A stretch of DNA of 11,624 nucleotides from Promethearchaeota archaeon (GCA_048939465.1 JBHLPL010000061.1:1-11624), one strand, 5' to 3'. Positions 2-10,891 are shown, numbered from the stretch's first letter. Made by a program: numbers and translations. The notes: generated by a model not told the origin, from the sequence alone.

Positions 2-250
2 GAGTATAAGGAAGAACTTGAAAAGAAAGCGTTTGAAATTCTTCATAGTATTCCTTCTCATCTCCGTGGAGGACGTAATCCCTATATTTTTGCGGCTGCA
101 ACCATCTATACTGCTGACCAGAAACTTGCCAGGGAGACGGGAAAAATGTACATACTGACTCAGAAAATCATAGCAGAGATAACAAAAGTTGCAGAATATA
201 GTATTCGTGATCACTTTTGCTCCCTATTAAAACCGAGGATAATTCAATGA
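2..250 (+). CDS. 3' end of a TFB/TFIIB-family (cyclin-fold) protein, 5'-truncated by the window edge
   Basis: Hand translation of frame 2: EYKEELEKKAFEILHSIPSHLRGGRNPYIFAAATIYTADQKLARETGKMYILTQKIIAEITKVAEYSIRDHFCSLLKPRIIQ*, stop TGA 248-250. It matches the second cyclin repeat of TFB (G-x-x-P...AAA-x-x-Y...TQ-x-x-x-A...E-x-x-I/V-R). Not in the ORF track. Confidence 0.8.
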   Translation, partial: EYKEELEKKAFEILHSIPSHLRGGRNPYIFAAATIYTADQKLARETGKMYILTQKIIAEITKVAEYSIRDHFCSLLKPRIIQ

Positions 251-847: not shown

Positions 848-1045
848 TTAGAAAGGCAAGAGATTTGCTATGGTTTCCATCAGTGAATTGATAGAATCGC
901 CAGCCCATCCAAGTATACCTAGTATGACCGTAACCAATATCGCTATTGCAAGTATAGAGAGACCTATGATAAGCCCCTCCTCTACGAGTGGCCCAGCTTC
1001 ATCATTCTTGAAGAACTCCTTCAATTTGCGCAGCAGTCTTTTCAT
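848..1045 (-). CDS. Flp/Fap-like type IVb prepilin (65 aa, predicted 47-aa mature form)
   Basis: MKRLLRKLKEFFKNDEAG|PLVEEGLIIGLSILAIAILVTVILGILG...: basic leader, F-x-x-D-E-x-G cleavage context as in Flp prepilins, Glu at +5, then a long hydrophobic helix. Lies at the end of a TadA/TadB/TadC-like cluster. ATG 1045 has SD GGGGA (1056-1052); ATG 1051 is the alternative. Confidence 0.82.
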   Translation of the reverse strand: MKRLLRKLKEFFKNDEAGPLVEEGLIIGLSILAIAILVTVILGILGWAGDSINSLMETIANLLPF

Positions 1046-1079
1046 CAACATTCCCCTATTCTATGTTCCTTTACCGAAT

Positions 1080-1087
1080 TATTTAAA
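1080..1087 (-). promoter_or_regulatory. TATA box (TTTAAATA) of a dedicated pilin promoter
   Basis: Consensus archaeal TATA in the 52-bp gap between the platform gene and the pilin, about 28-34 nt upstream of the candidate ATGs. Confidence 0.55.
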
Positions 1088-1103
1088 CTCCCAACAAGAC
1101 GCC

Positions 1104-1805
1104 CTACAACAGGAAAGTAAGAAATTCGTGGGCAATTAGATAAACAACCAAGTAGATCGTTAATGACAATACCACATGCAGTTCGATCTTCTTCATCTTT
1201 AACATCCTCATGTTTGCATATGTTGTCAGCAAACCAACTGCTCCAAATGTTATTAGAATGTACAGCTGATCAAAAGACAATATCTGCGTTAGATTGTATG
1301 TCGCAACCTCGCCGCTTAGAATGCTTAGCATTGAGAACCAAGGAGCCAGTGTCGTTATTATGCCAAAAATGCACGAAGAGACGATTACCAGAAACCTCAG
1401 TTTGAACTCTTGTGCACGAATAATGCTTTCTCTTTGAGCAACTAGTTGTTGATTTTCCCTTAGGTGAGTAACGATTGAGATTATTCGTTCACCTGAAACA
1501 TACGCATCCTTTTGTATGGATCTAACGACAATTCTGAGTAACCGCCTTGATTGAGGATTTACCAGAGTTTTCTCTAGCATCTGACATGCTTCACCAAGAG
1601 AAAGACCCTTTTCATACATTTTGGCCACAAATTCACCCAATATCTGCTTCAACGGACCGTTATACTGTCTTGAAGTCTCTCTGAATGCTTTCTCGGGACT
1701 CATCTTCCTCAGTAGCTTTTCTCCGAAAATAGCTAGAAAGTTGCCTAATTCTGTCATCTCCATTTTCGAATAATTATCTGTAGCCTTTCTTGTATTCTTT
1801 TTCAA
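1104..1805 (-). CDS. TadB/TadC-like (T2SS-F domain) pilus platform membrane protein, 233 aa
   Basis: Helical cytoplasmic domain (ELGNFLAIF...MSPEKAFRETSRQYNGPLKQILGEFVAKM...GLSLGEAC...SRRLLRIVVRS) followed by about three TM helices. TTG start with SD GGAGG in the end of the upstream gene. Adjacent to a secretion ATPase. Confidence 0.8.
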   Translation of the reverse strand: MKKNTRKATDNYSKMEMTELGNFLAIFGEKLLRKMSPEKAFRETSRQYNGPLKQILGEFVAKMYEKGLSLGEACQMLEKTLVNPQSRRLLRIVVRSIQKDAYVSGERIISIVTHLRENQQLVAQRESIIRAQEFKLRFLVIVSSCIFGIITTLAPWFSMLSILSGEVATYNLTQILSFDQLYILITFGAVGLLTTYANMRMLKMKKIELHVVLSLTIYLVVYLIAHEFLTFLL

Positions 1806-1807
1806 TA

Positions 1808-2635
1808 CTACTGTCCTCCCAGCAATCTCGTTTTGGTTCTCAACAGCATTCTATTGAGCGTGACGAGAAGAATTGCTTGTATGGGAATTAGTGAAAACAT
1901 AAAAACAGTGTTACCAAATCCCCACATAACAAGTCCCAGGCCTAATATGATCGGAAAGAAGATTCCTATGCCGACAAGTATCATGATTCTGCTTTCCACT
2001 TGCATCGTGAATTTGCTGTATTCCGATTGAATCTCCCATTGAGAATAGCTTGATAATTGCTTCAGCAATTTGCCTGAAACACTCTTAGTTGCAATGAATG
2101 TGATTAAATAGTCTCTTAATAGTTTGGAAGGCTGGGATAGGGCAAACTCAGTAATTAATTGCTCTGGGGGTTCCCCATGGTTTATCCGACATATCATTTC
2201 CTTGAATCGTGAAGACACATATGGATAGTTGCCCTCAGCTATGAATCGAACGGCATCGAAAATCGATCCAGTGGCACTTACTGTCATGAGAAACTCTTCT
2301 ATGATCAATTCTGAGTATTTTGCGATTGCAAGTTGTTCTTCCCGATATTTCCTTGGAAGAAGGCCTAAAAAATAACTATACCCTAAGAAAAACACAAATG
2401 GCATCAGAGATAAAGCGACGATCCAGTTAAAACACCCTACGATGGGTACCATAGCTGCAACAATCATACTTCCAAAGCCGATTGCTCCTGAGGATATTTC
2501 TCCTGGAGTCAGCTTTAGTTTCTTATAGTAATACTCGGCAGGAATGCTTAGTCTTTGAGGAGCTAGACGCTGTCCGAGGGTCTTTGCTGGCTCAAAAGAT
2601 GAGAAGAACCTACATATTTTGCTGAATCTATTCAC
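1808..2635 (-). CDS. TadB/TadC-like (T2SS-F domain) pilus platform membrane protein, 275 aa
   Basis: Two N-terminal TM helices, then the T2SS-F-like segment (EFLMTVSATGSIFDAVRFIAEGNYPYVSSRFKEMICRINHGEPPEQLITEFA), then two TM helices. The GTG start overlaps the ATPase stop (GTGA) and has SD GAGGA. Confidence 0.82.
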   Translation of the reverse strand: MNRFSKICRFFSSFEPAKTLGQRLAPQRLSIPAEYYYKKLKLTPGEISSGAIGFGSMIVAAMVPIVGCFNWIVALSLMPFVFFLGYSYFLGLLPRKYREEQLAIAKYSELIIEEFLMTVSATGSIFDAVRFIAEGNYPYVSSRFKEMICRINHGEPPEQLITEFALSQPSKLLRDYLITFIATKSVSGKLLKQLSSYSQWEIQSEYSKFTMQVESRIMILVGIGIFFPIILGLGLVMWGFGNTVFMFSLIPIQAILLVTLNRMLLRTKTRLLGGQ

Positions 2636-4785
2636 GAAACATCCTCCTCGATTTTTTCTAGGATCAGCTTTTTCAAGAAAGACCAGTTTATTTCACCGTG
2701 CTCTTGCAGGCCTTGTCTTAAAGAATATAAGCAATTGAAAATTCGTACGTTTTCATCAACGTTGAAGACACTCTTCTCTTTCATGACTCTGAAGATTTCA
2801 GAATATGTATTGATCTCTCGAGTAAAATCTTCTGGAGTGATGTTCTCATACTGCTTTATTTTCTGTACAGTTGGTGAGTCAAACAATCCAATTTTTGGCT
2901 CAATCTTGTCTAGTGCTGGATTCCAACGGTATATGTCTACCAATTCTATTTTTGGAGTCTTTGAAAGGTCGGTGTTTCTACCAGCGTCAATTTCGCAAAC
3001 GCGAACCAACCTACGCTTTGGCTCTCCGACTGATGTAAACCTCTTGACATGGAGTAACAAATCGAGTTCGCCAAAACAGACAGAGGGGATTTTATGGTGG
3101 ACGTTCCATCTTATCAATAGGTCCTCAGGAGACATGGCATGGCACGTCTGAAGGCCAGTAAGACCTGTAGAGATTGCACGAAACATTGCGGCCGAATCTT
3201 CTGGTGTCTGGATTTCTGAGATGAGAACCCAATCGGGAGATCGATGCAGTAGTTTTGTTATCTCTCTTGCTTTCCCTCCAGGGTTATCTTCTCCTTCAAA
3301 TGGTTTTACCTGAAAGCGTACTTGGTGTTTACCATAATCTGTTTGTGATATGCTTTCTATAACGTCCTCAACCGTTATTTTTCGCCATGAAGATGGAGTG
3401 AGCATGTCGATTGCATTTATTAAAGTAGTTTTACCAGCTCCTGGTCTGCCCAAAATCGTCATATTCCTTCTTCTTATGAGGCAAAAATATAGATAGGAAG
3501 CTGCTTCTTCTGTTAATGTGGAATTGGCTATGAGTTCAGATAGTGTGAAATGTCTTTTTCTAAGTTTTCGTATGTCCAGATGAAAGCCATCTGCGGCAAG
3601 GGGACCTATATCTACAGAGGCACGGATGTGAAAGCGTTTTGAGACAATCTCTGTTTTGAGTGATGGACTTAGCTCATCAAGCCTTAGTCCGCTTTTGGCC
3701 CGAAAATGTGTAACAAGCCTCTTTCTGTCCTCTTCTGACAAATAAATCGGAGTATTACATCTTCCCCACTTCCTATGATCTAGATAGACCGCAGAGTCGG
3801 GTGTATCCACATAAAACTCTTCTATTTTTTCATCAAGAAGAAAAGGCATAATTGTGCCTAATCCTATTGATTCAAAACAACCTAGTAGAGCTAATTCCTC
3901 GGCAAGCTCATCCGGAATTTCAGGGAACTTTTCACTCAAGAAGCGCATGGCTTCCTGTTTCTTAAGACCTATTAGTGCATCGATATCCAAGAACTCGTCT
4001 TCGAAAAGCATGGAAGCTGATACTTCTCTCAGCCCTCTTATCAGATCCAGAAATATCCCTTGAAACTTCGACTTTCCCGTTATTGCATCCACCAAATAAT
4101 ATAACTCAGCAGGCTTATTCTCCGACTCACATATCTTCATTGTATATGGACCGACTTCGTATTGGTCCATAATCGACCCTTTGCCTACAAGTCTCTCTGC
4201 AACTCTAGTCCTTTTTCTAGGAATATATCTGGGTGTTAGAAACAGACCATAGAGTGTTTTTCTTTCAGCTCTTCTCAAGGAAGGATCTAGTTTCAGGTAC
4301 TGCTGGATCAAGTCCGTTTTTTCCAATGTGTTCCTGATTCTTTCCAGGAATCTGGCATATTTTACATAGCAACGTTCGCATTTCTTCTTGGAAAGAGCAT
4401 AATTCAGATTGATTTCCCACACCAGTTCTGCGTGCGCTTTTATGGGATCTTGATATATCAACCCGTCTCTATCTGCTCCTATGAGGCCTTTGAGAAAGAA
4501 TCCTCTATTCTCATAACAGGAGCTTGAATCTGGACACTCTTTTGAGACTACATCTTCCTCAGAGATGCGCATGGAAGATATTTTCCTGGAGGCATTTGCG
4601 ATTTCTTTCAGCAACCTTACCTGATTCGATGTGAGTATATGGAGATATGAAGGTTTTTCAAAGACTATTTCGCTGACTTCTTCTGACGTTTCTATCAGAG
4701 ATCGAATGCATTGGATTGTGCACGGAATGCTATCTCTCAGGTCTGCATTGTTTGCGCACTCTTGACCTGCTCCGTCATGACACAT
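2632..4785 (-). CDS. VirB11/CpaF/TadA-family pilus assembly ATPase with a Cys-rich N-terminal extension (717 aa; true start may lie upstream)
   Basis: Walker A GRPGAGKTT, Asp box ITVEDVIE, Walker B region SPDWVLISE, His-box remnant QTCHA, N-domain motif FLLDEKIEEFYVD. Followed by two T2SS-F genes and a pilin. Confidence 0.93.
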   Translation of the reverse strand: MCHDGAGQECANNADLRDSIPCTIQCIRSLIETSEEVSEIVFEKPSYLHILTSNQVRLLKEIANASRKISSMRISEEDVVSKECPDSSSCYENRGFFLKGLIGADRDGLIYQDPIKAHAELVWEINLNYALSKKKCERCYVKYARFLERIRNTLEKTDLIQQYLKLDPSLRRAERKTLYGLFLTPRYIPRKRTRVAERLVGKGSIMDQYEVGPYTMKICESENKPAELYYLVDAITGKSKFQGIFLDLIRGLREVSASMLFEDEFLDIDALIGLKKQEAMRFLSEKFPEIPDELAEELALLGCFESIGLGTIMPFLLDEKIEEFYVDTPDSAVYLDHRKWGRCNTPIYLSEEDRKRLVTHFRAKSGLRLDELSPSLKTEIVSKRFHIRASVDIGPLAADGFHLDIRKLRKRHFTLSELIANSTLTEEAASYLYFCLIRRRNMTILGRPGAGKTTLINAIDMLTPSSWRKITVEDVIESISQTDYGKHQVRFQVKPFEGEDNPGGKAREITKLLHRSPDWVLISEIQTPEDSAAMFRAISTGLTGLQTCHAMSPEDLLIRWNVHHKIPSVCFGELDLLLHVKRFTSVGEPKRRLVRVCEIDAGRNTDLSKTPKIELVDIYRWNPALDKIEPKIGLFDSPTVQKIKQYENITPEDFTREINTYSEIFRVMKEKSVFNVDENVRIFNCLYSLRQGLQEHGEINWSFLKKLILEKIEEDVS

Positions 4786-4910
4786 GAACAGCAGTCTGTG
4801 TGATCTTCTACGACCTACTCTCTGGTTATCGATTTCTTCGAGCCTTTTTTCACACAGTGTACGTGCTGTTATTGTTATCTGTATCCCCTGTGGTAAAGTC
4901 CTTCTAGTTA

Positions 4911-4932
4911 TTATAAAAAGTCAACTTTGACT
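4911..4932 (-). promoter_or_regulatory. TATA box (TTTATAA, 4917-4911) with an abutting 14-bp inverted repeat AGTCAA-N2-TTGACT (4919-4932)
   Basis: Read directly: the plus strand 4911-4932 is TTATAAAAAGTCAACTTTGACT. The palindrome covers the BRE position of a promoter oriented toward the ATPase. Confidence 0.55.
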
Positions 4933-4958
4933 GAAAACGGCTCCCAACATAATTAGAA

Positions 4959-5294
4959 TTAGTGAAGCTGTAGATGCTTGCGTACTTCGCTATAGGTCAC
5001 CAGTCTAATCTTCCTTTTGTTCGCGTAGCTTCGTGCATGAGAACTAAAACTAGGGCCAACAACTATTCCTTGCTGGAGATCAGCCTTACCAATGGCACGG
5101 TCGAGTCTTAATAAAACGTTTACACCCACTGTTCTTTTCCAGTCTTTTACCACGACACCGTACAATACGTTCTCTCGTTCTTTTATCAGCAGATCGATGC
5201 TATACTTGTTCTTCATAATCCTGTCTTCTTTGACATTGTATCCTTGTGTTTCGAAAAACTCGATGGCTAGTTCTTTTAAGGATCGCTTTCGCAT
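4959..5294 (-). CDS. Small Mrr-cat-like PD-(D/E)xK-fold protein (111 aa), probably with a degenerate active site
   Basis: LKELAIEFFETQGYNV...IDLLIK...GVVVKDW...QGIVVGPSFSSHARSYANKRKIRLVT follows the Mrr_cat pattern (helix ending GY-x-V, acidic strand, x-x-K strand, G-x-x-V-x-x-x-x-F-S/T-x-x-A, I-x-L). Confidence 0.78.
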   Translation of the reverse strand: MRKRSLKELAIEFFETQGYNVKEDRIMKNKYSIDLLIKERENVLYGVVVKDWKRTVGVNVLLRLDRAIGKADLQQGIVVGPSFSSHARSYANKRKIRLVTYSEVRKHLQLH

Positions 5295-5445
5295 TTGCTG
5301 GTCACTCTTGTTATAATACGAAATCTTTGCTTATTAATTTAGCCTTTTGTCAAACTTAAGACACGCCCCTCATATTAATGAAAAGCAGGCGTAAGCAGGC
5401 AAAGTTACAAAACTGAGACAAGATAAATAGTGCTCACCAGATGCT

Positions 5446-5847
5446 CTACTCCGTCTTTTTAAGAATCTGAGGGACGTATTCCCCGATTATTCCGAACAGC
5501 AAATCGACCTTCTTCTCTATTTCCTCGATCTTATCTGTCATCGCTTCAAATAACTTCAAAGAATTCTCAACATTCTCAAGTCTTGTCAGAAGCAACTGTT
5601 CTTGGTTAGATATCGAATTCTTGGCGAGATTCTCTGAATCTTGTAATCCGTTTGTTTGTGTTTGCACTCCTTCAGGAGTCTCATCATTTCTTAACTGGGC
5701 GTCTATTAAACCGGTTTTCGCAAGGGCTTTGTCAATCCTGTTGTCTGAGAACCCAATATTCTGAAGCACCCCCTTAAGACCGCGTTTGCTCATGCCGTTT
5801 CTCAGCATAATCTCAACCATCTCTTCTAAGCTCTTCTTGACAGCCAT
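5446..5847 (-). CDS. Hypothetical protein: small N-terminal helical domain, polar linker, C-terminal coiled coil (133 aa)
   Basis: ATG abuts the upstream TAG (TAGATG) with SD GGAGGAG. N-terminus MVEIMLRNGMSKRGLKGVLQNIGFSDNRIDKAL; heptad-like C-terminus RLENVENSLKLFEAMTDKIEEIEKKVDLL. Confidence 0.8.
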   Translation of the reverse strand: MAVKKSLEEMVEIMLRNGMSKRGLKGVLQNIGFSDNRIDKALAKTGLIDAQLRNDETPEGVQTQTNGLQDSENLAKNSISNQEQLLLTRLENVENSLKLFEAMTDKIEEIEKKVDLLFGIIGEYVPQILKKTE

Positions 5848-6189
5848 CTATTTCGTCTCCTCCGATCCCAATTTTGCTTCAATACGCGCTATCGTCTTTG
5901 CATACTTTCGCAGAAGTTCTACATCCGCTTTAGTCGCCATTCTGCCTTTCATAAAACCGATCTCATCTTTGTTTAGGATACTTGTTTCCTTTACCGAGAG
6001 TACAAGATTCTTGAGGAATGCAATTTCTTGAATTAAGACCTCAAGTCTTAGATGGATGGTGTTTATCCTTTCCTCGAGCGTTGAGATCTTTTCATACACC
6101 TCTTGATCAGGATCATCCTCATGCTCAAGATTGATCCGTACATCATGTCTCATTTCGAGATTCTCTTGATCCATTCTCCTAAAACCCAA
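5848..6189 (-). CDS. Hypothetical coiled-coil protein (about 113 aa, start uncertain)
   Basis: Acidic N-terminus followed by heptads (ISTLEERINTIHLRLEVLIQEIAFLKNLV) and ATKADVELLRKY. Translationally coupled to the next gene. Confidence 0.75.
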   Translation of the reverse strand: MGFRRMDQENLEMRHDVRINLEHEDDPDQEVYEKISTLEERINTIHLRLEVLIQEIAFLKNLVLSVKETSILNKDEIGFMKGRMATKADVELLRKYAKTIARIEAKLGSEETK

Positions 6190-6246
6190 TAATGACGTGT
6201 CTCACTTGGGCTTAAATACACCGCTTTCCTACTTCCGCGAAGGAGG

Positions 6247-6888
6247 CTAGACATTCTCCAGTTGTACGCCCTTTGGGTAATTGCTGCTGATGATTTTATC
6301 GGCAATTCTCATGGTTGCAAGGGCTGCAGGGCTAGATTCTGCACCTTCCACGTAGAAGCTATCTAGCTGCTCTGCTTTGATGACTTCCTCATCATAAGGA
6401 ACTACTCCGAGGATAGCAGTATTAAGATACTGTGCTATCGCCTTGTGGCTGTATTCGTAATCTGCACATTCGCCTGCCTTATTAATTATCGAATAAATCG
6501 ACTCTCCAAATCTGTTTCTAACAAGATTTGATACTGTAAGACTGCTTCCGAGTGATACTTTGTATGGTGTGGTGACTAATATTGCGCCATCAACTTCTTC
6601 TACGGATCTGAAAATCGGCATTAGATTCCCAGTCATAAATATGAGATCGGAATTATCTCGGGACAACCTTAGTATGTTCCTAACTTTTTCCCGTTTTATC
6701 TCATCAGATATCTGAATATACAGCAACTGTTCTTTGTTTGGTATAGGCAGTTGGATCTGCCTGTTATTATCGAAGTTAATGATGAGCGTCTTTTTCCCAA
6801 GCGTTCTTGCATAGTATGCCGTGTTCATCAATATCTGTGTTCTCCCCACTCCACCTTTCCCGCTTGTAAATAATACTGTTTTTGCCAT
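6247..6888 (-). CDS. MinD/ParA (SIMIBI) family protein with degenerate ATPase motifs, 213 aa
   Basis: Deviant Walker A SGKGGVGRT, then GKKTLIINFD, VDGAILVTTP...SLGSSL, SIINK and ILGVVPYDEEVIKA, all collinear with MinD. Confidence 0.88.
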   Translation of the reverse strand: MAKTVLFTSGKGGVGRTQILMNTAYYARTLGKKTLIINFDNNRQIQLPIPNKEQLLYIQISDEIKREKVRNILRLSRDNSDLIFMTGNLMPIFRSVEEVDGAILVTTPYKVSLGSSLTVSNLVRNRFGESIYSIINKAGECADYEYSHKAIAQYLNTAILGVVPYDEEVIKAEQLDSFYVEGAESSPAALATMRIADKIISSNYPKGVQLENV

Positions 6889-7125: not shown

Positions 7126-7530
7126 GTGATTGATTTGGAGCTAACTCTCGAGAAAGCATTAGCAATAATAATAACCCTTTCCTTTACCTTGTCTCTAGGC
7201 GTACCTATAGCTCAAAGAGCAATCTACGTGGTTTCTGATTCTCAAAAAATGGTAGCAATAAATATGGTCATAGATGCTGTTGATGGTGGAATAGCAAATG
7301 TTTCGACAACTGGGGAGTTATACATACGTTCTGTATATCTGCCGAATGACTTGGTAATCTGGAGCGAGAATAGAAGCATTTTCTACAAGTTCTATATTGA
7401 GACCTGGCACATAATCGAAAGGACTTACTCTCTAAAGATTGCACTAGAACCCGCTGCTGAATCCGGAAATCATTTTCTTACCATCAGTTTAGTTGAAAAC
7501 GTAATTCACATCGACTTCACAAGTTGGTGA
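7126..7530 (+). CDS. Membrane-anchored archaeal pilin-like protein (134 aa from GTG 7126, or 131 aa from TTG 7135)
   Basis: N-terminal ELTLEKALAIIITLSFTLSLGVPIA (Glu+5-like pattern followed by a hydrophobic helix), an amphipathic helix, then a beta-rich domain (VYLPNDLVIW...SGNHFLTISL). SD-like GGTGTGA lies upstream of TTG 7135. The pilin assignment is by pattern only. Confidence 0.6.
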   Translation: MIDLELTLEKALAIIITLSFTLSLGVPIAQRAIYVVSDSQKMVAINMVIDAVDGGIANVSTTGELYIRSVYLPNDLVIWSENRSIFYKFYIETWHIIERTYSLKIALEPAAESGNHFLTISLVENVIHIDFTSW

Positions 7531-7536
7531 TGCGCT

Positions 7537-7785
7537 TTGGAACTCGTGTGGGTCATCTTGGTGCTCGTAATAATGGTCATTTGGCTTGCGGAGTTGCTGG
7601 TAACTCCCTTCTGTAACGATATGATCTCTTTTTCGTTCATTTTTTCGATTTTCATCGTAACCGCGCCAATAGTCTTATCTATAGCAGCCAAGCTATCTCC
7701 TCTATTCACAATAGTATCGGTATTTGCAATAACCTTTGCAATCATTATGCTAGGCCAGTTTTGTGTCATCTTGCTTACAAGCTAG
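7537..7785 (+). CDS. Small integral membrane protein (82 aa, about 3 TM helices)
   Basis: TTG start with SD GGTGAT (7526-7531) overlapping the upstream stop; almost entirely hydrophobic sequence. Confidence 0.6.
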   Translation: MELVWVILVLVIMVIWLAELLVTPFCNDMISFSFIFSIFIVTAPIVLSIAAKLSPLFTIVSVFAITFAIIMLGQFCVILLTS

Positions 7786-7881: not shown

Positions 7882-9336
7882 CTAGCGGATTTCAACGCCG
7901 CTCGAGCCACTCTTTCGCTTCTTTCTTATCAATATTACTACTAAAGGACTAACCGATATGATAGGCAGCAGATACCAGATTGAATTGCCCATGTTGCGGG
8001 ATGCTGTTGCCTCGACAACCTCAACATCGACTTCGCCAAAGGATGAAAGGTGAATATCGGATTCCTGTACAACGGCCCTAAGCTTAACGGATCCTAAAGG
8101 AACATCTTCAGGGGTCAACCATGTAAAGGAAGTATTACCATCCACCACCTGTATGTTTCCAATACTATGCCATTCTTCATTCCAGAATGCGTAAATTTCC
8201 ACGTCAGAAGCATTTTCTACCAAGTGGTCTGAAATAGTGTCAATTATCATGATACTGATCGCGGCGGGTTCTCCTCGAGTTATATTTCCATTTAGAGAGA
8301 GAATCGTATTGGTTGGACGGCCTATCACAGATAAGAAGAGTATCGTGTAGTCTGTTGAATTCGTCTTTCTAGCACGAAGTACGACCGGATACGTCCCTTT
8401 CTGTTTAGGTGCTGAAATTATGCTCTGATACGTTCCATTACCATTATCGGATAGCATGCCCTCAGAGAAACTTGTTTTCCAGCTTAGGCTAACATAAGAA
8501 CTATTCGCATTCTCACGGACGATTATGGAAGAAGACGTCGGATCATAATCTACGTAAGCGTAAACGCTTTCTGGAGCTAACGAAGCATCTAATGCAGTCG
8601 AGTTGTTCACGTAAATCTGGTATTCAAGTGTTGCAGACTCATAATCACTGGTCTCTGACACGTTGAAGTTGAATGTGTAATTGCTGCTTGACCAGTCTGT
8701 TTCGTAAAATGCAATAGGAATTCTTCCTGCGCTATCCGTAAAATACGTGTTGTTAATTAGTTGCCCATCATCCGAATAAGCTTGAATCTGAACAACTAGA
8801 TTAGGAATGACCAGTGTCCTGTCATGTTCATTAAAGAACTCAAAAATCACTTCGATCTCTTCGTGGTCAGAGACATGACTGGAAGTAACGTTAACACACG
8901 TGCAATTAATCCCCGCCCTCTTGACTGAAAAGGTTACAACTGCATTTTCCATCAAAGTACCATTTTCTTCATCAACCACCAAAGTCACATTGCCCACACC
9001 TGTCTGTCCGTCTGCACCTGGATCCCACGATTGTGGATCAATCCTGAAATCGGCTGACCTAAGCTGTCTTACACCAGGTTCAGTGAATATTTCTTCCGCG
9101 ACAAAAGAATTGAGTGTATGAATCGAAAAAATAGCCTGCCCTGTTTCTTGAGGTGGACTATATTCTAAGGTGTAGGATGAAGTCAACGTTAGTGTTTCCC
9201 CTATTTCGTACGGAGTTCTTACTGAAATTCCATGAATCTCCACATTTCCTGGATTGCCGTAGGCCGGGTTTAAAAAACTCGTTGTAAGCATAAGAGAGAG
9301 CAGTAATAAGCTTAGATACAATGTTTTTCTATTCAC
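7882..9336 (-). CDS. Secreted, C-terminally membrane-anchored surface (glyco)protein with beta-rich/Ig-like segments, 484 aa
   Basis: Sec signal peptide MNRKTLYLSLLLLSLMLTTSFLNPAYG; T/S/N/V/E-rich body with about 15 N-x-S/T sequons; C-terminal TM IWYLLPIISVSPLVVILI followed by RKKRK. Confidence 0.85.
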   Translation of the reverse strand: MNRKTLYLSLLLLSLMLTTSFLNPAYGNPGNVEIHGISVRTPYEIGETLTLTSSYTLEYSPPQETGQAIFSIHTLNSFVAEEIFTEPGVRQLRSADFRIDPQSWDPGADGQTGVGNVTLVVDEENGTLMENAVVTFSVKRAGINCTCVNVTSSHVSDHEEIEVIFEFFNEHDRTLVIPNLVVQIQAYSDDGQLINNTYFTDSAGRIPIAFYETDWSSSNYTFNFNVSETSDYESATLEYQIYVNNSTALDASLAPESVYAYVDYDPTSSSIIVRENANSSYVSLSWKTSFSEGMLSDNGNGTYQSIISAPKQKGTYPVVLRARKTNSTDYTILFLSVIGRPTNTILSLNGNITRGEPAAISIMIIDTISDHLVENASDVEIYAFWNEEWHSIGNIQVVDGNTSFTWLTPEDVPLGSVKLRAVVQESDIHLSSFGEVDVEVVEATASRNMGNSIWYLLPIISVSPLVVILIRKKRKSGSSGVEIR

Positions 9337-9426: not shown

Positions 9427-9472
9427 AGTTTAATTTACAGTGCTTGAAAATACCATTGGGGATATAATAAGC

Positions 9473-10891
9473 ATGGTGCAAGAGCGTACTGGCCCAAAAT
9501 CTGAGACACAAGCGTACACCGCTCGTACCTATCAGACCGTGATTGAGGTTTCTGGTCCACTACTAATCGTTGAAGGAGTCGATAATGTTGGATACGAAGA
9601 ACTGGTCAGAGTGATTACGCCGGATGGAGAAAGCCGAACTGGAACAGTCTTAGAAACAGCAAAAGGTAAGGTCGTAATTCAGGTCTTTGAAGGAACTCGG
9701 GGCTTAAACACTGAAAGTACGAATGTGCGTTTCACTAGTGAGACATTAAAACTTCCCGTTTCTGCGGACATACTCGGAAGGATTTTCAGCGGAAGTGGGC
9801 AACCACTCGATGGCGGTCCGCCTATCATTCCTGATGATTACAGGGATATAAACGGATTTCCTATCAATCCTTATGCTCGAGAATATCCTAGAGAGTACAT
9901 CCAAACTGGAATTTCTGTAATAGACGGAATGAATAGCCTAAGCAGGGGGCAAAAGCTGCCAATTTTCAGCGGAAATGGCCTTCCTCACAACAGGATCGCG
10001 GCTCAAATAGCCCGACAAGCTAAGGTATTGGGAAAGGAAGAGGAATTTGCTATCGTGTTTTGTGCAATGGGCATTACGGCTGAAGAGGCTCAGTATTTCA
10101 AAGCCAACTTCGAAAAAACAGGTGCTCTTGAAAGATTAACCATGTTCATAAACCTGGCAGATGATCCTGCTATTGAGCGGATAATAACTCCAAGAATGGC
10201 CTTAACAGCGGCCGAATACCTGGCTTATGAACAAGGTCTACACCTATTAGTAATACTGACAGACATGACCAACTATGCTGAGGCCTTAAGAGAGATTTCT
10301 GCAGCTCGTGAAGAGGTGCCAGGACGACGGGGGTATCCGGGTTACATGTACACCGATTTGGCCACCATTTACGAACGTGCAGGCAGAATTAAAGGTCGAA
10401 GAGGAACGATAACACAGATGCCGATCCTATCAATGCCACACGATGACATAACTCATCCTATACCGGATCTTACGGGGTATATTACCGAAGGGCAGCTAAT
10501 AGTTGATAGGGGTCTTCACAGAAAAGCAATCTATCCTCCCATAGACCCTCGTCCAAGTCTCTCGAGGTTAATGAAAGAAGGAATCGGGGAGGGTATGACG
10601 AGAGGTGATCATCGAGAGGTATCGGATCAGTTGTACTACGCCTACTCGACAGGCTGCGACTTACGGGACCTGGTGGCAGTTGTTGGCGAGGAGGCTTTGA
10701 CAGAGAGGGACAGACAATATCTCAAGTTTGCAGATGAATTTGAAAGACGTTTCATTAATCAAGGTGAGTATGAAGAACGTTCAATATACGATACATTGGA
10801 TTTGGCTTGGAATTTGCTATCGGCATTACCTGAAGGAGAACTAAAACGCATTGACCCCGAGACGATAAAGAAATACCTCAAAACCGACTAA
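9473..10891 (+). CDS. atpB: A/V-type ATP synthase subunit B
   Basis: Signature motifs [10 protein letters not shown]-x-[83 protein letters not shown] 9473 is preferred over GTG 9440, which lies too close to the TATA box. Confidence 0.97.

Follow-up and report, generated by a model that had tools for sequence, protein, structure and literature searches.

The stretch of DNA analysed here, referred to below as the window, is JBHLPL010000061.1:1-11624 (11,624 nucleotides, nt) from the genome assembly GCA_048939465.1 of a Promethearchaeota archaeon, in which a preliminary description made from the nucleotide sequence had proposed an archaeal Tad/Flp-like pilus system of eight co-oriented genes at positions 848-6888. 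Calling of open reading frames (ORFs) in the window, combined with searches of Pfam and NCBIfam, recovered all eight, which are arranged head to tail on the minus strand across 848-6888. The proposed type IV filament (T4F) gene set of the Tad/Epd-like kind, with a Flp-like pilin and a platform split between two genes, was borne out by family matches and alignments. In the direction of transcription, the ORFs were as follows.

6247-6888, minus strand: degenerate MinD/ParA-like protein (GGVGR variant), 213 amino acids (aa), with CbiA/ParA Pfam matches
5848-6189, minus strand: CC1, coiled-coil protein, 113 aa, matching no curated family
5446-5847, minus strand: CC2, cytoplasmic protein, 133 aa, matching no Pfam or PDB entry
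4959-5294, minus strand: degenerate Mrr_cat protein with the PD-(D/E)xK fold, 111 aa (PF04471, PF22722)
2632-4785, minus strand: T4F ATPase with a Cys-rich N-terminal extension, 717 aa (T2SSE)
1808-2635, minus strand: platform protein, N-terminal half, 275 aa (T2SSF, above the cut-off)
1104-1805, minus strand: platform protein, C-terminal half, 233 aa (T2SSF, below the cut-off)
848-1051, minus strand: Flp-like mini-prepilin, 67 aa (identified by family alignment)

The stop codon of CC1 abuts the start codon of CC2, and the start of the gene for the N-terminal half of the platform overlaps the stop of the ATPase gene by 4 nt. The intergenic gaps are 151 bp between CC2 and the Mrr-like gene and 173 bp between the latter and the ATPase gene, as had been reported. 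The TATA-like boxes described together with these gaps correspond to A/T-rich stretches found upstream of the Mrr-like, ATPase and pilin genes, including TTTAAATAAT located about 30 nt 5' of the mini-pilin start. A scan for sigma-70 promoters and terminators revealed no enrichment; signals of this type do not apply to archaea.

A genome-kinship table groups the host genome (1.96 Mb, 91% complete) in one order with genomes of 1.3-1.4 Mb that carry the label Odinarchaeota. The public record nearest to the window, locus L001 (JBHLKK010000032, 84% identity), is labelled Hodarchaeota. The two labels disagree, and one is probably mistaken; the kinship placement is followed here. A genome-wide search of the host revealed a single T2SSE ATPase above the family cut-off, namely, that of the window, and a single prepilin peptidase, which combines a Peptidase_A24 domain with the archaeal type II C-terminus (Arc_PepC_II) and is encoded on contig C104 (L083:978-1754). 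The locus is therefore the only type IV filament machinery of the organism. Since the genome contains no second T4F ATPase, there is also no archaellum motor, in line with the absence of archaellum genes given in the preliminary description. Convergent with the peptidase gene is a gene for a KaiC/ArlH-like ATPase (L083:1807-2544; PF06745, 254 bits). ATPases of the KaiC family are known companions of archaeal type IV pilus (T4P) loci, and for this reason the gene may encode a further part of the machine supplied in trans.

Comparative analysis was performed on 80 loci around relatives of the ATPase, of 231 detected, which were searched iteratively with the window proteins and compared through all-against-all clustering. 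The window ATPase matched T2SSE at 54.8 bits, above the cut-off, and its Walker A motif (GRPGAGKTT), Walker B motif with its Glu, and Asp and His boxes were invariant in the family alignment. Eight Cys residues are located within its first 140 residues, and Cys columns were kept in the N-terminal ~140 residues across the family. The relatives were all archaeal, mainly from Asgard archaea, with additional representatives from Bathyarchaeia, Nezhaarchaeota and other TACK groups. Two phylogenetic trees revealed a monophyletic family (SH-aLRT 100) on a long stem (1.7-1.95), apart from ArlI-like ATPases, other archaeal T4F ATPases and bacterial CpaF, with the window ATPase placed as sister to an Odinarchaeota sequence. 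Thus, the ATPase described at first as a Cys-rich TadA is not a TadA of bacterial type but belongs to a long-branched archaeal clade of its own, and nesting of this family within bacterial TadA/CpaF was ruled out by the same trees. The scores on curated models were correspondingly low: members of the clade reached 86-88 bits on the TadA and FlaI models, with 87.6 bits for the window ATPase on the TadA model (cut-off 373), while ordinary archaeal T4F ATPases reached 190-715 bits.

Family-level matches to the ATPase were found in 90 of the 101 sampled genomes of the phylum (in 47 of the 49 of high quality), mostly in single copy, and in 29 of the 121 sampled Thermoproteota. The gene order ATPase, platform, platform, mini-pilin recurs in Asgard genomes labelled Odin-, Freya-, Jord-, Baldr-, Borr-, Sif- and Heimdall-, and it was found as well in Bathyarchaeia, Methanomethylicia, Nezhaarchaeales, Culexarchaeia and Thermoprotei. 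If platforms both split and fused are counted, the succession of ATPase, platform and mini-pilin is a conserved feature of the 80 loci.

The two platform genes had been thought to parallel bacterial TadB and TadC. The protein encoded by the first matched T2SSF at 35 bits, above the Pfam cut-off, and that encoded by the second matched it below the cut-off (E-value = 0.005). A single gene encodes a platform of ~500 aa in Hel-, Loki-, Thor- and Hermod-type loci; the 275-aa protein of the window aligned to this fused protein over residues ~10-290 and the 233-aa protein over residues ~280-520. Therefore, the two genes represent fission or fusion halves of one platform protein, and not TadB and TadC in the bacterial order.

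The smallest of the eight genes encodes a member of a mini-pilin family characterized by a basic leader, the motif [KR][GA]↓[SG]PL[VI]EEG[LI]L (the arrow marks the cleavage site), an invariant Glu at position +5, a hydrophobic helix of ~20 residues and a short tail, with no globular head in the family alignment. When aligned to the family, the window prepilin reads KNDEA↓GPLVEEGLII, so that cleavage is predicted between Ala and Gly and the mature protein would carry Gly at +1, Glu at +5 and Gly at +7. The earlier placement of Pro at +1 was thus one residue off. The register of bacterial Flp pilins is G↓xxxxEY, and that of the window mini-pilin agrees with it. Position -2 is occupied by Glu in the window prepilin, by Arg in the sister genome and by Lys or Arg in most relatives. 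The gene is present in single copy in the host genome, and neither a peptidase nor a further class III pilin was seen in the window.

A mini-pilin was found in 38 of the 80 loci, and a leaderless pilin-like gene, considered below, was found in 29 of the 80. Searching 1.84 billion proteins with a profile built from 21 mini-pilins yielded 171 cluster representatives, of which almost all are 44-97 aa long. The matches grade into sequences of the GGS[IV]VEYGL type, with several Flp_Fap intermediates below the threshold, and the profile reaches (E-value = 1.6 × 10−5) a protein that Pfam scores as Flp_Fap at 68.5 bits. The window mini-pilin itself had no match to Flp_Fap (PF04964), and no Pfam or NCBIfam model recognised the family, one member of which had a weak Pilin_N match. 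This lack of recognition is plausibly the reason why earlier surveys saw no pilin.

The product of the gene at the head of the operon consists of the ATPase-like domain alone and matched the archaeal MinD model at 62 bits (cut-off 202). Its Walker A motif is GKGGVGRT, in which Arg replaces the catalytic Lys. All five of the R-type proteins seen, those of the window, L001, L029, L049 and L086, have GGVGR; in two of these loci, L029 and L049, both labelled Odinarchaeota, the signature Lys was also lost (QGGVGR). The protein of locus L084 (QGGVGK) retained the catalytic Lys and had lost the signature Lys. In a profile search of 5.8 billion proteins, the variant amounted to only ~12 clusters before ordinary MinD proteins began, and it is apparently confined to Odinarchaeia-type genomes. 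Its gene heads the operon in all seven contiguous loci, namely, L001, L029, L049, L084, L086 and those of genomes G126 and G160, which belong to the order of the window (a third match, G138, is the genome of L029). The MinD-like variant is thus a dedicated part of the system.

Homologues of CC1 were detected at the corresponding position of L001 and of the Odinarchaeia locus L086 (7667-7990). CC2 is distributed more widely, being encoded directly 5' of the ATPase in 20 loci from Odinarchaeia-type genomes, Bathyarchaeia, Methanomethylicia, Nezhaarchaeales and Thermoprotei, and its gene abuts or overlaps that of the ATPase in lineages that have no MinD-like gene. The conserved features of CC2 are an L-x-x-L-G-F motif in the N-terminal domain and a C-terminal Y-x-P motif. 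An AlphaFold2 (AF2) model predicted helices at residues 7-16, 21-31, 35-44 and 70-132, that is, three bundled helices followed by a disordered linker and then by a C-terminal helix of ~60 residues. A Foldseek search of PDB with this model returned nothing significant, with generic three-helix or HTH-like bundles as the only matches, and the predicted N-terminal domain could be UBA-like or HTH-like. Prediction of a complex of the ATPase and CC2 scored 0.00, which gives no verdict and counts neither way.

The Mrr-like protein matched PF04471 (E-value = 1.8 × 10−12, 47.8 bits, cut-off 21) and also the inactive restriction endonuclease family PF22722 (E-value = 2.6 × 10−9); a sequence search of PDB returned no useful match. 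Its motif is D…V-V-K, compared with D…E-V-K in an intact paralog of the same genome, so that the Asp and Lys are kept and Val replaces Glu. The same Val substitution was found in L001 and in the homologue from Bathyarchaeota locus L038. The preliminary description had taken the MinD-like and Mrr-like proteins for pseudo-enzymes, and the conservation of the substituted catalytic positions in orthologues of both agrees with this. The Mrr-like gene occurs near the ATPase elsewhere only in the sister genome and in L038, where it is located 5.9 kb downstream of the ATPase; these two occurrences hint at an association with the machine and do not prove it. The linkage between the left and right halves of the gene cluster, which had been called unproven, is therefore supported for three of the four accessory genes, since they recur beside the ATPase in other genomes: the MinD-like gene in every contiguous locus, CC1 in L001 and L086, and CC2 in 20 loci. 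For the Mrr-like gene it remains weak.

The gene system also runs past 848-6888. The eight genes at those positions stood as described, and further parts were recognised on both sides of them.

2-250, plus strand: divergent TFIIB (TFB) paralog, C-terminal 82 aa, weak PF00382 match, gene cut by the contig end
7135-7530, plus strand: leaderless pilin-like protein, 131 aa from a TTG start at 7135 (family alignment, AF2 model)
7537-7785, plus strand: small membrane protein (cluster c54), 82 aa, conserved in related loci
7882-9336, minus strand: surface protein, 484 aa, with a signal peptide, an Ig-like region and a C-terminal membrane anchor

The TFIIB fragment matched PF00382 at 21.5 bits, and the six other TFB genes of the genome matched at 50-98 bits; the window gene is therefore a divergent paralog. 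In 48 of 81 loci, a TFIIB-like protein of one cluster (c2, ~330 aa) was encoded no more than 8 kb from the family ATPase; its gene often lay immediately 5' of that of the ATPase, in the same orientation, and was commonly preceded by RpbG/Rpb8-like and LSm genes.

The leaderless pilin-like gene is present in single copy in the host genome and is transcribed divergently from the operon headed by the MinD-like gene. Proteins of its family start with M-x-x-[LI]-x-E-K, in which Glu and Lys are invariant, and have no leader peptide. The AF2 model (pLDDT 91.7) consists of an N-terminal helix (residues 2-59) and a beta domain, giving the "lollipop" shape of a pilin. Foldseek returned nothing significant for this model. 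In a wide search with VIA-align, the only matches spanning both the helix and the sheet were type IV pilins, which were weak (Z 4.0-4.7). The model thus fits a pilin fold, and nothing further can be read from it. The gene was kept in L001 and in Odinarchaeia-type and Bathyarchaeia loci, and in Loki/Thor-type loci it is located between the ATPase gene and the fused platform gene.

Besides L001, the Hel-type loci L035, L036 and L039 have kept the gene for the 82-aa membrane protein, a protein with no Pfam match; in L035 and L039 this gene adjoins that of a homologue of the surface protein. The Ig-like region of the surface protein is rich in N-x-S/T sequons and had only weak Big_1/Invasin_D3 matches; its homologues were found in L001, in L029 and L049, which are Odinarchaeota loci, and in loci of Hel type.

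Housekeeping genes flank the system in the window.

298-600: ribosomal protein S17e
9440-10891: A/V-type ATPase B subunit

S17e was found near the module also in Odinarchaeota, in Hel-type loci and in locus L132 (discussed below), which indicates an old syntenic block. A number of other genes occur around the module in the related loci. In Loki/Thor/Hermod-type loci (L044-L079), which have the fused platform and the leaderless pilin-like gene, the module adjoins the ribosomal L3-L4-L23 operon, and a prepilin-peptidase-like gene (cluster c18, D…R-x-I-P-N, identified from motif reading alone) lies a few genes downstream. Genes for small Ras/Arf-like GTPases are located within a few kb of the module in L035, L039 and L086, a Roadblock/LC7-like gene within a few kb of it in L086, and a Urm1/ThiS-like gene near it in L035, L039 and L084. 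A candidate tRNA-Glu with two non-canonical introns at 652-790 was not borne out: ARAGORN found no tRNA anywhere in the window, and there was no Rfam tRNA match. The Rfam search of the window at E ≤ 1 returned only two small RNA matches, both at chance level.

Among the known systems closest to this one is the archaeal subclade 4D of Pyrobaculum and Thermoproteus. Its ATPase (arCOG05558) is short, at 335-343 aa, and Cys-rich in the N-terminal region, and it is accompanied by a protein with 4-5 transmembrane segments that is perhaps a diverged short TadC (PMC4858521). The 4D operon includes a lineage-specific TFIIB homologue with an adjoining Rpb8 gene; "no potential pilins" were reported for it, and a transcription-related role was suggested (PMC4858521). 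In a later census, 4D was called a likely remnant, and ordered T4F loci were described as rare in Asgard archaea (PMC13705601). Locus L132 (Thermoproteota), the genome of which was fetched on a weak ATPase match in a 356-aa frame, has the published 4D layout: an RpbG-like gene, a 162-aa Zn-ribbon TFIIB, a 343-aa ATPase and a 186-aa membrane protein. As in the family loci, LSm and S17e genes are located nearby, S17e being shared with the window as well. No mini-pilin was found in this reduced locus. At the 100-supported split of the tree, its ATPase lay, on a long branch, to the side of the family. A word-based search for ATPase relatives shorter than 394 aa returned only fragments and CpaF-like proteins, none of which was labelled Pyrobaculum.

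The features in common between the window and 4D are a divergent TFIIB paralog beside a divergent secretion ATPase, a Cys-rich ATPase N-terminus and LSm/S17e synteny, to which the relatives of the window add RpbG/Rpb8 near the ATPase (L084, cluster c31, L132); no such gene was seen in the window, the end of the contig falling within the TFB gene. The differences lie in completeness: 4D has two or three genes and no pilin, whereas the window encodes a 717-aa ATPase, both platform halves and a mini-pilin, together with the leaderless pilin-like protein, the surface protein and the MinD-like, CC1, CC2 and Mrr-like set. On account of the TFIIB linkage, the layout of L132 and the position of its ATPase in the tree, the window family is read as the probable complete form, of which 4D would be a reduced derivative. 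In the preliminary description, the system was regarded as under-described. This does not wholly hold for the core, which on this reading is the complete form of the published 4D (PMC4858521, PMC13705601). The MinD-like variant with CC1, the wide occurrence of CC2, the Mrr-fold add-on, the leaderless pilin-like gene and the prevalence figures are new here.

In comparison with the bacterial Tad/Flp system, the window has a short headless pilin with Glu +5 and Gly +7, a platform made of two one-domain genes, a single ATPase and, encoded 5' of the ATPase, a MinD/ParA-like protein whose Walker A is deviant. In contrast to Tad, its ATPase is not grouped with CpaF, the platform genes follow the order N-terminal half then C-terminal half, the pilin falls below the Flp_Fap threshold, and the MinD-like protein has no receiver-like domain, whereas bacterial TadZ combines an atypical receiver domain with an atypical ATPase domain. 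No secretin (RcpA/CpaC), TadV or TadE/TadF was found among the window ORFs; a genome-wide search for them was not made. The Epd pilus, or archaeal T4F system 1, of Methanococcus likewise has two platform genes, a headless short major pilin and an ATPase that belongs to the FleN/MinD family (PMC6668835, PMC13705601), but the Epd locus has its own peptidase (EppA/EpdA) and several class III minor pilins, none of which is present in the window locus. The system resembles the accessory parts of the archaellum (ArlF/ArlG, ArlH, ArlX) in having pilin-like proteins that are anchored in the membrane and not cleaved, in the small cytoplasmic accessories, coiled-coil or ATPase-like, around the motor, and in the KaiC/ArlH-like gene of the host beside the peptidase gene. 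It differs in that the window ATPase is far from ArlI; the window proteins matched ArlF, ArlG or ArlX neither in sequence nor, to a significant degree, in fold, and no archaellins were found among them.

Taken as a whole, the locus is most probably (with a rough probability of 0.68) the version, in this lineage, of a T4F-like machine common to nearly all sampled Asgard archaea and to many TACK archaea, which has its own TFIIB paralog. Judging from the kinds of proteins encoded, its function would be that of a pilus, a pseudopilus or a translocon. The A24 peptidase would cut the prepilin between Ala and Gly, giving a nearly all-helical subunit of ~46 residues with Glu at +5. A hexamer of the ATPase, acting through the platform heterodimer, would then lift the subunits from the membrane, and what they form would be either a short pseudopilus or a thin filament of the Flp/Epd-like kind. 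As non-cleaved base or priming parts, the machine could use the small membrane protein and the leaderless pilin-like protein, and the surface protein, presumably glycosylated, could be an adhesin or an envelope anchor. In the Tad machine of Caulobacter, six dimers of the MinD-like CpaE, which has a deviant Walker A, ring the CpaF hexamer, and the Walker A of TadZ serves dimerisation (PMC13170226). Because of this arrangement, the MinD-like protein is proposed to be, probably, a scaffold, ring or positioning factor around the ATPase, either nucleotide-dependent or nucleotide-independent, as TadZ/CpaE is in Tad. CC1 and CC2 may be coiled-coil connectors, the Mrr-fold protein may be a recent add-on and possibly a nucleic-acid binder, and the TFB paralog would most simply be the locus's own initiation factor. 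Such a machine may provide what the preliminary description had suggested, a positioned pilus serving in adhesion, in contact or in the uptake of DNA.

It should be noted that several observations weigh against this interpretation. The very long branch of the ATPase family and its poor scores on curated models may reflect a changed function of the ATPase, and the 4D-type ATPase of L132 is itself on a long branch (3.4). The Glu at -2 of the window prepilin might impair its cleavage. The MinD-like protein lacks the receiver-like domain of TadZ and, unlike some of its orthologues, has no obvious C-terminal amphipathic helix. Finally, the 151- and 173-bp gaps with TATA-like boxes are compatible with separate transcription units.

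The same gaps, together with the many roles of MinD/ParA proteins outside pili, would be accounted for if the left half of the cluster (MinD-like, CC1, CC2 and Mrr-like genes) were an unrelated cytoskeletal or segregation module that happens to neighbour pilus genes. This is very improbable, the least probable of the explanations considered, given that every member of the MinD-like variant that could be placed adjoins a family ATPase and that CC2 abuts or overlaps the ATPase gene where the MinD-like gene is missing. Scarcely more credible is a machine that builds no filament and acts as a membrane-linked signalling or transcription device together with the TFIIB paralog, as was proposed for 4D. 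The high divergence of the ATPase and the conserved linkage to a divergent TFIIB paralog, joined in relatives by RpbG/Rpb8, favour such a device (PMC4858521, PMC13705601). The proposal rested, however, on the absence of a pilin, and a conserved prepilin-like gene with Glu +5 is present in the 38 mini-pilin loci, with a pilin-like gene in a further 23. The presence of a pilin makes a filament-free, transcription-linked role less likely; moreover, the platform proteins and the prepilin peptidase are retained, and a dedicated TFB may simply be the initiation factor of the operon.

In the main rival reading, which is unlikely, the T4F-derived machine would handle DNA or protein as a translocon or pseudopilus; its short piston or conduit would be made of mini-pilin, and nucleic acid would be bound by the Mrr-fold protein. 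In many TACK loci, a gene for a HerA/DUF87-type ATPase (a VirB4/TraG-like P-loop protein, cluster c24) lies directly 3' of the mini-pilin gene. It was recorded at L014:12360-13910 and in L021, L023-L025, L032, L038, L053, L062, L074 and L075, usually with CC2. The HerA/VirB4-like proteins CedB and CedD drive DNA import in Sulfolobales (PMC11868833), and the Mrr-like homologue of L038 is encoded just after the HerA-type ATPase. On the other hand, no clear orthologue of this HerA/DUF87-type partner was found in the host genome, and the Mrr-like gene is missing from nearly all loci. The mini-pilin has no globular head that could serve in adhesion, which favours this rival; against it, bacterial Flp pilins and the Epd pilins of archaea are adhesive although they too have no head (PMC6668835, PMC13705601).

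Within the interpretation of the locus as a widespread T4F-like machine, a more specific proposal can be put forward, tentatively and at well under even odds: that the nearly universal Asgard machine builds an as yet unassigned thin surface filament or contact/translocation organelle used for contact with partners or for the exchange of DNA or protein. It is equally tentative that this organelle would be made with its own TFB paralog, a Flp-type mini-pilin and a leaderless pilin-like base protein, and, with the same reserve, that in Odinarchaeia-type genomes it would further have a ring of catalytically dead MinD and coiled-coil connectors. If this is true, the "pilin-less remnant" of 4D and the "scattered" T4F genes of Asgard archaea would come down to a mini-pilin that escapes current models.

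No known organisms are more closely related to eukaryotes than Asgard archaea, and the way in which these archaea make contact with partners and with surfaces is a key element in models of eukaryogenesis. The locus is a complete, ordered machine and the sole one in its genome, as against a census in which ordered loci were called rare in Asgard archaea (PMC13705601). It supplies the missing pilin and names candidate parts, namely, the leaderless pilin-like protein, the degenerate MinD and the two coiled-coil proteins. The traits that it has in common with bacterial Tad, that is, the headless pilin with Glu +5, the split platform and the deviant MinD, bear on the proposed archaeal origin of Tad (PMC6668835).

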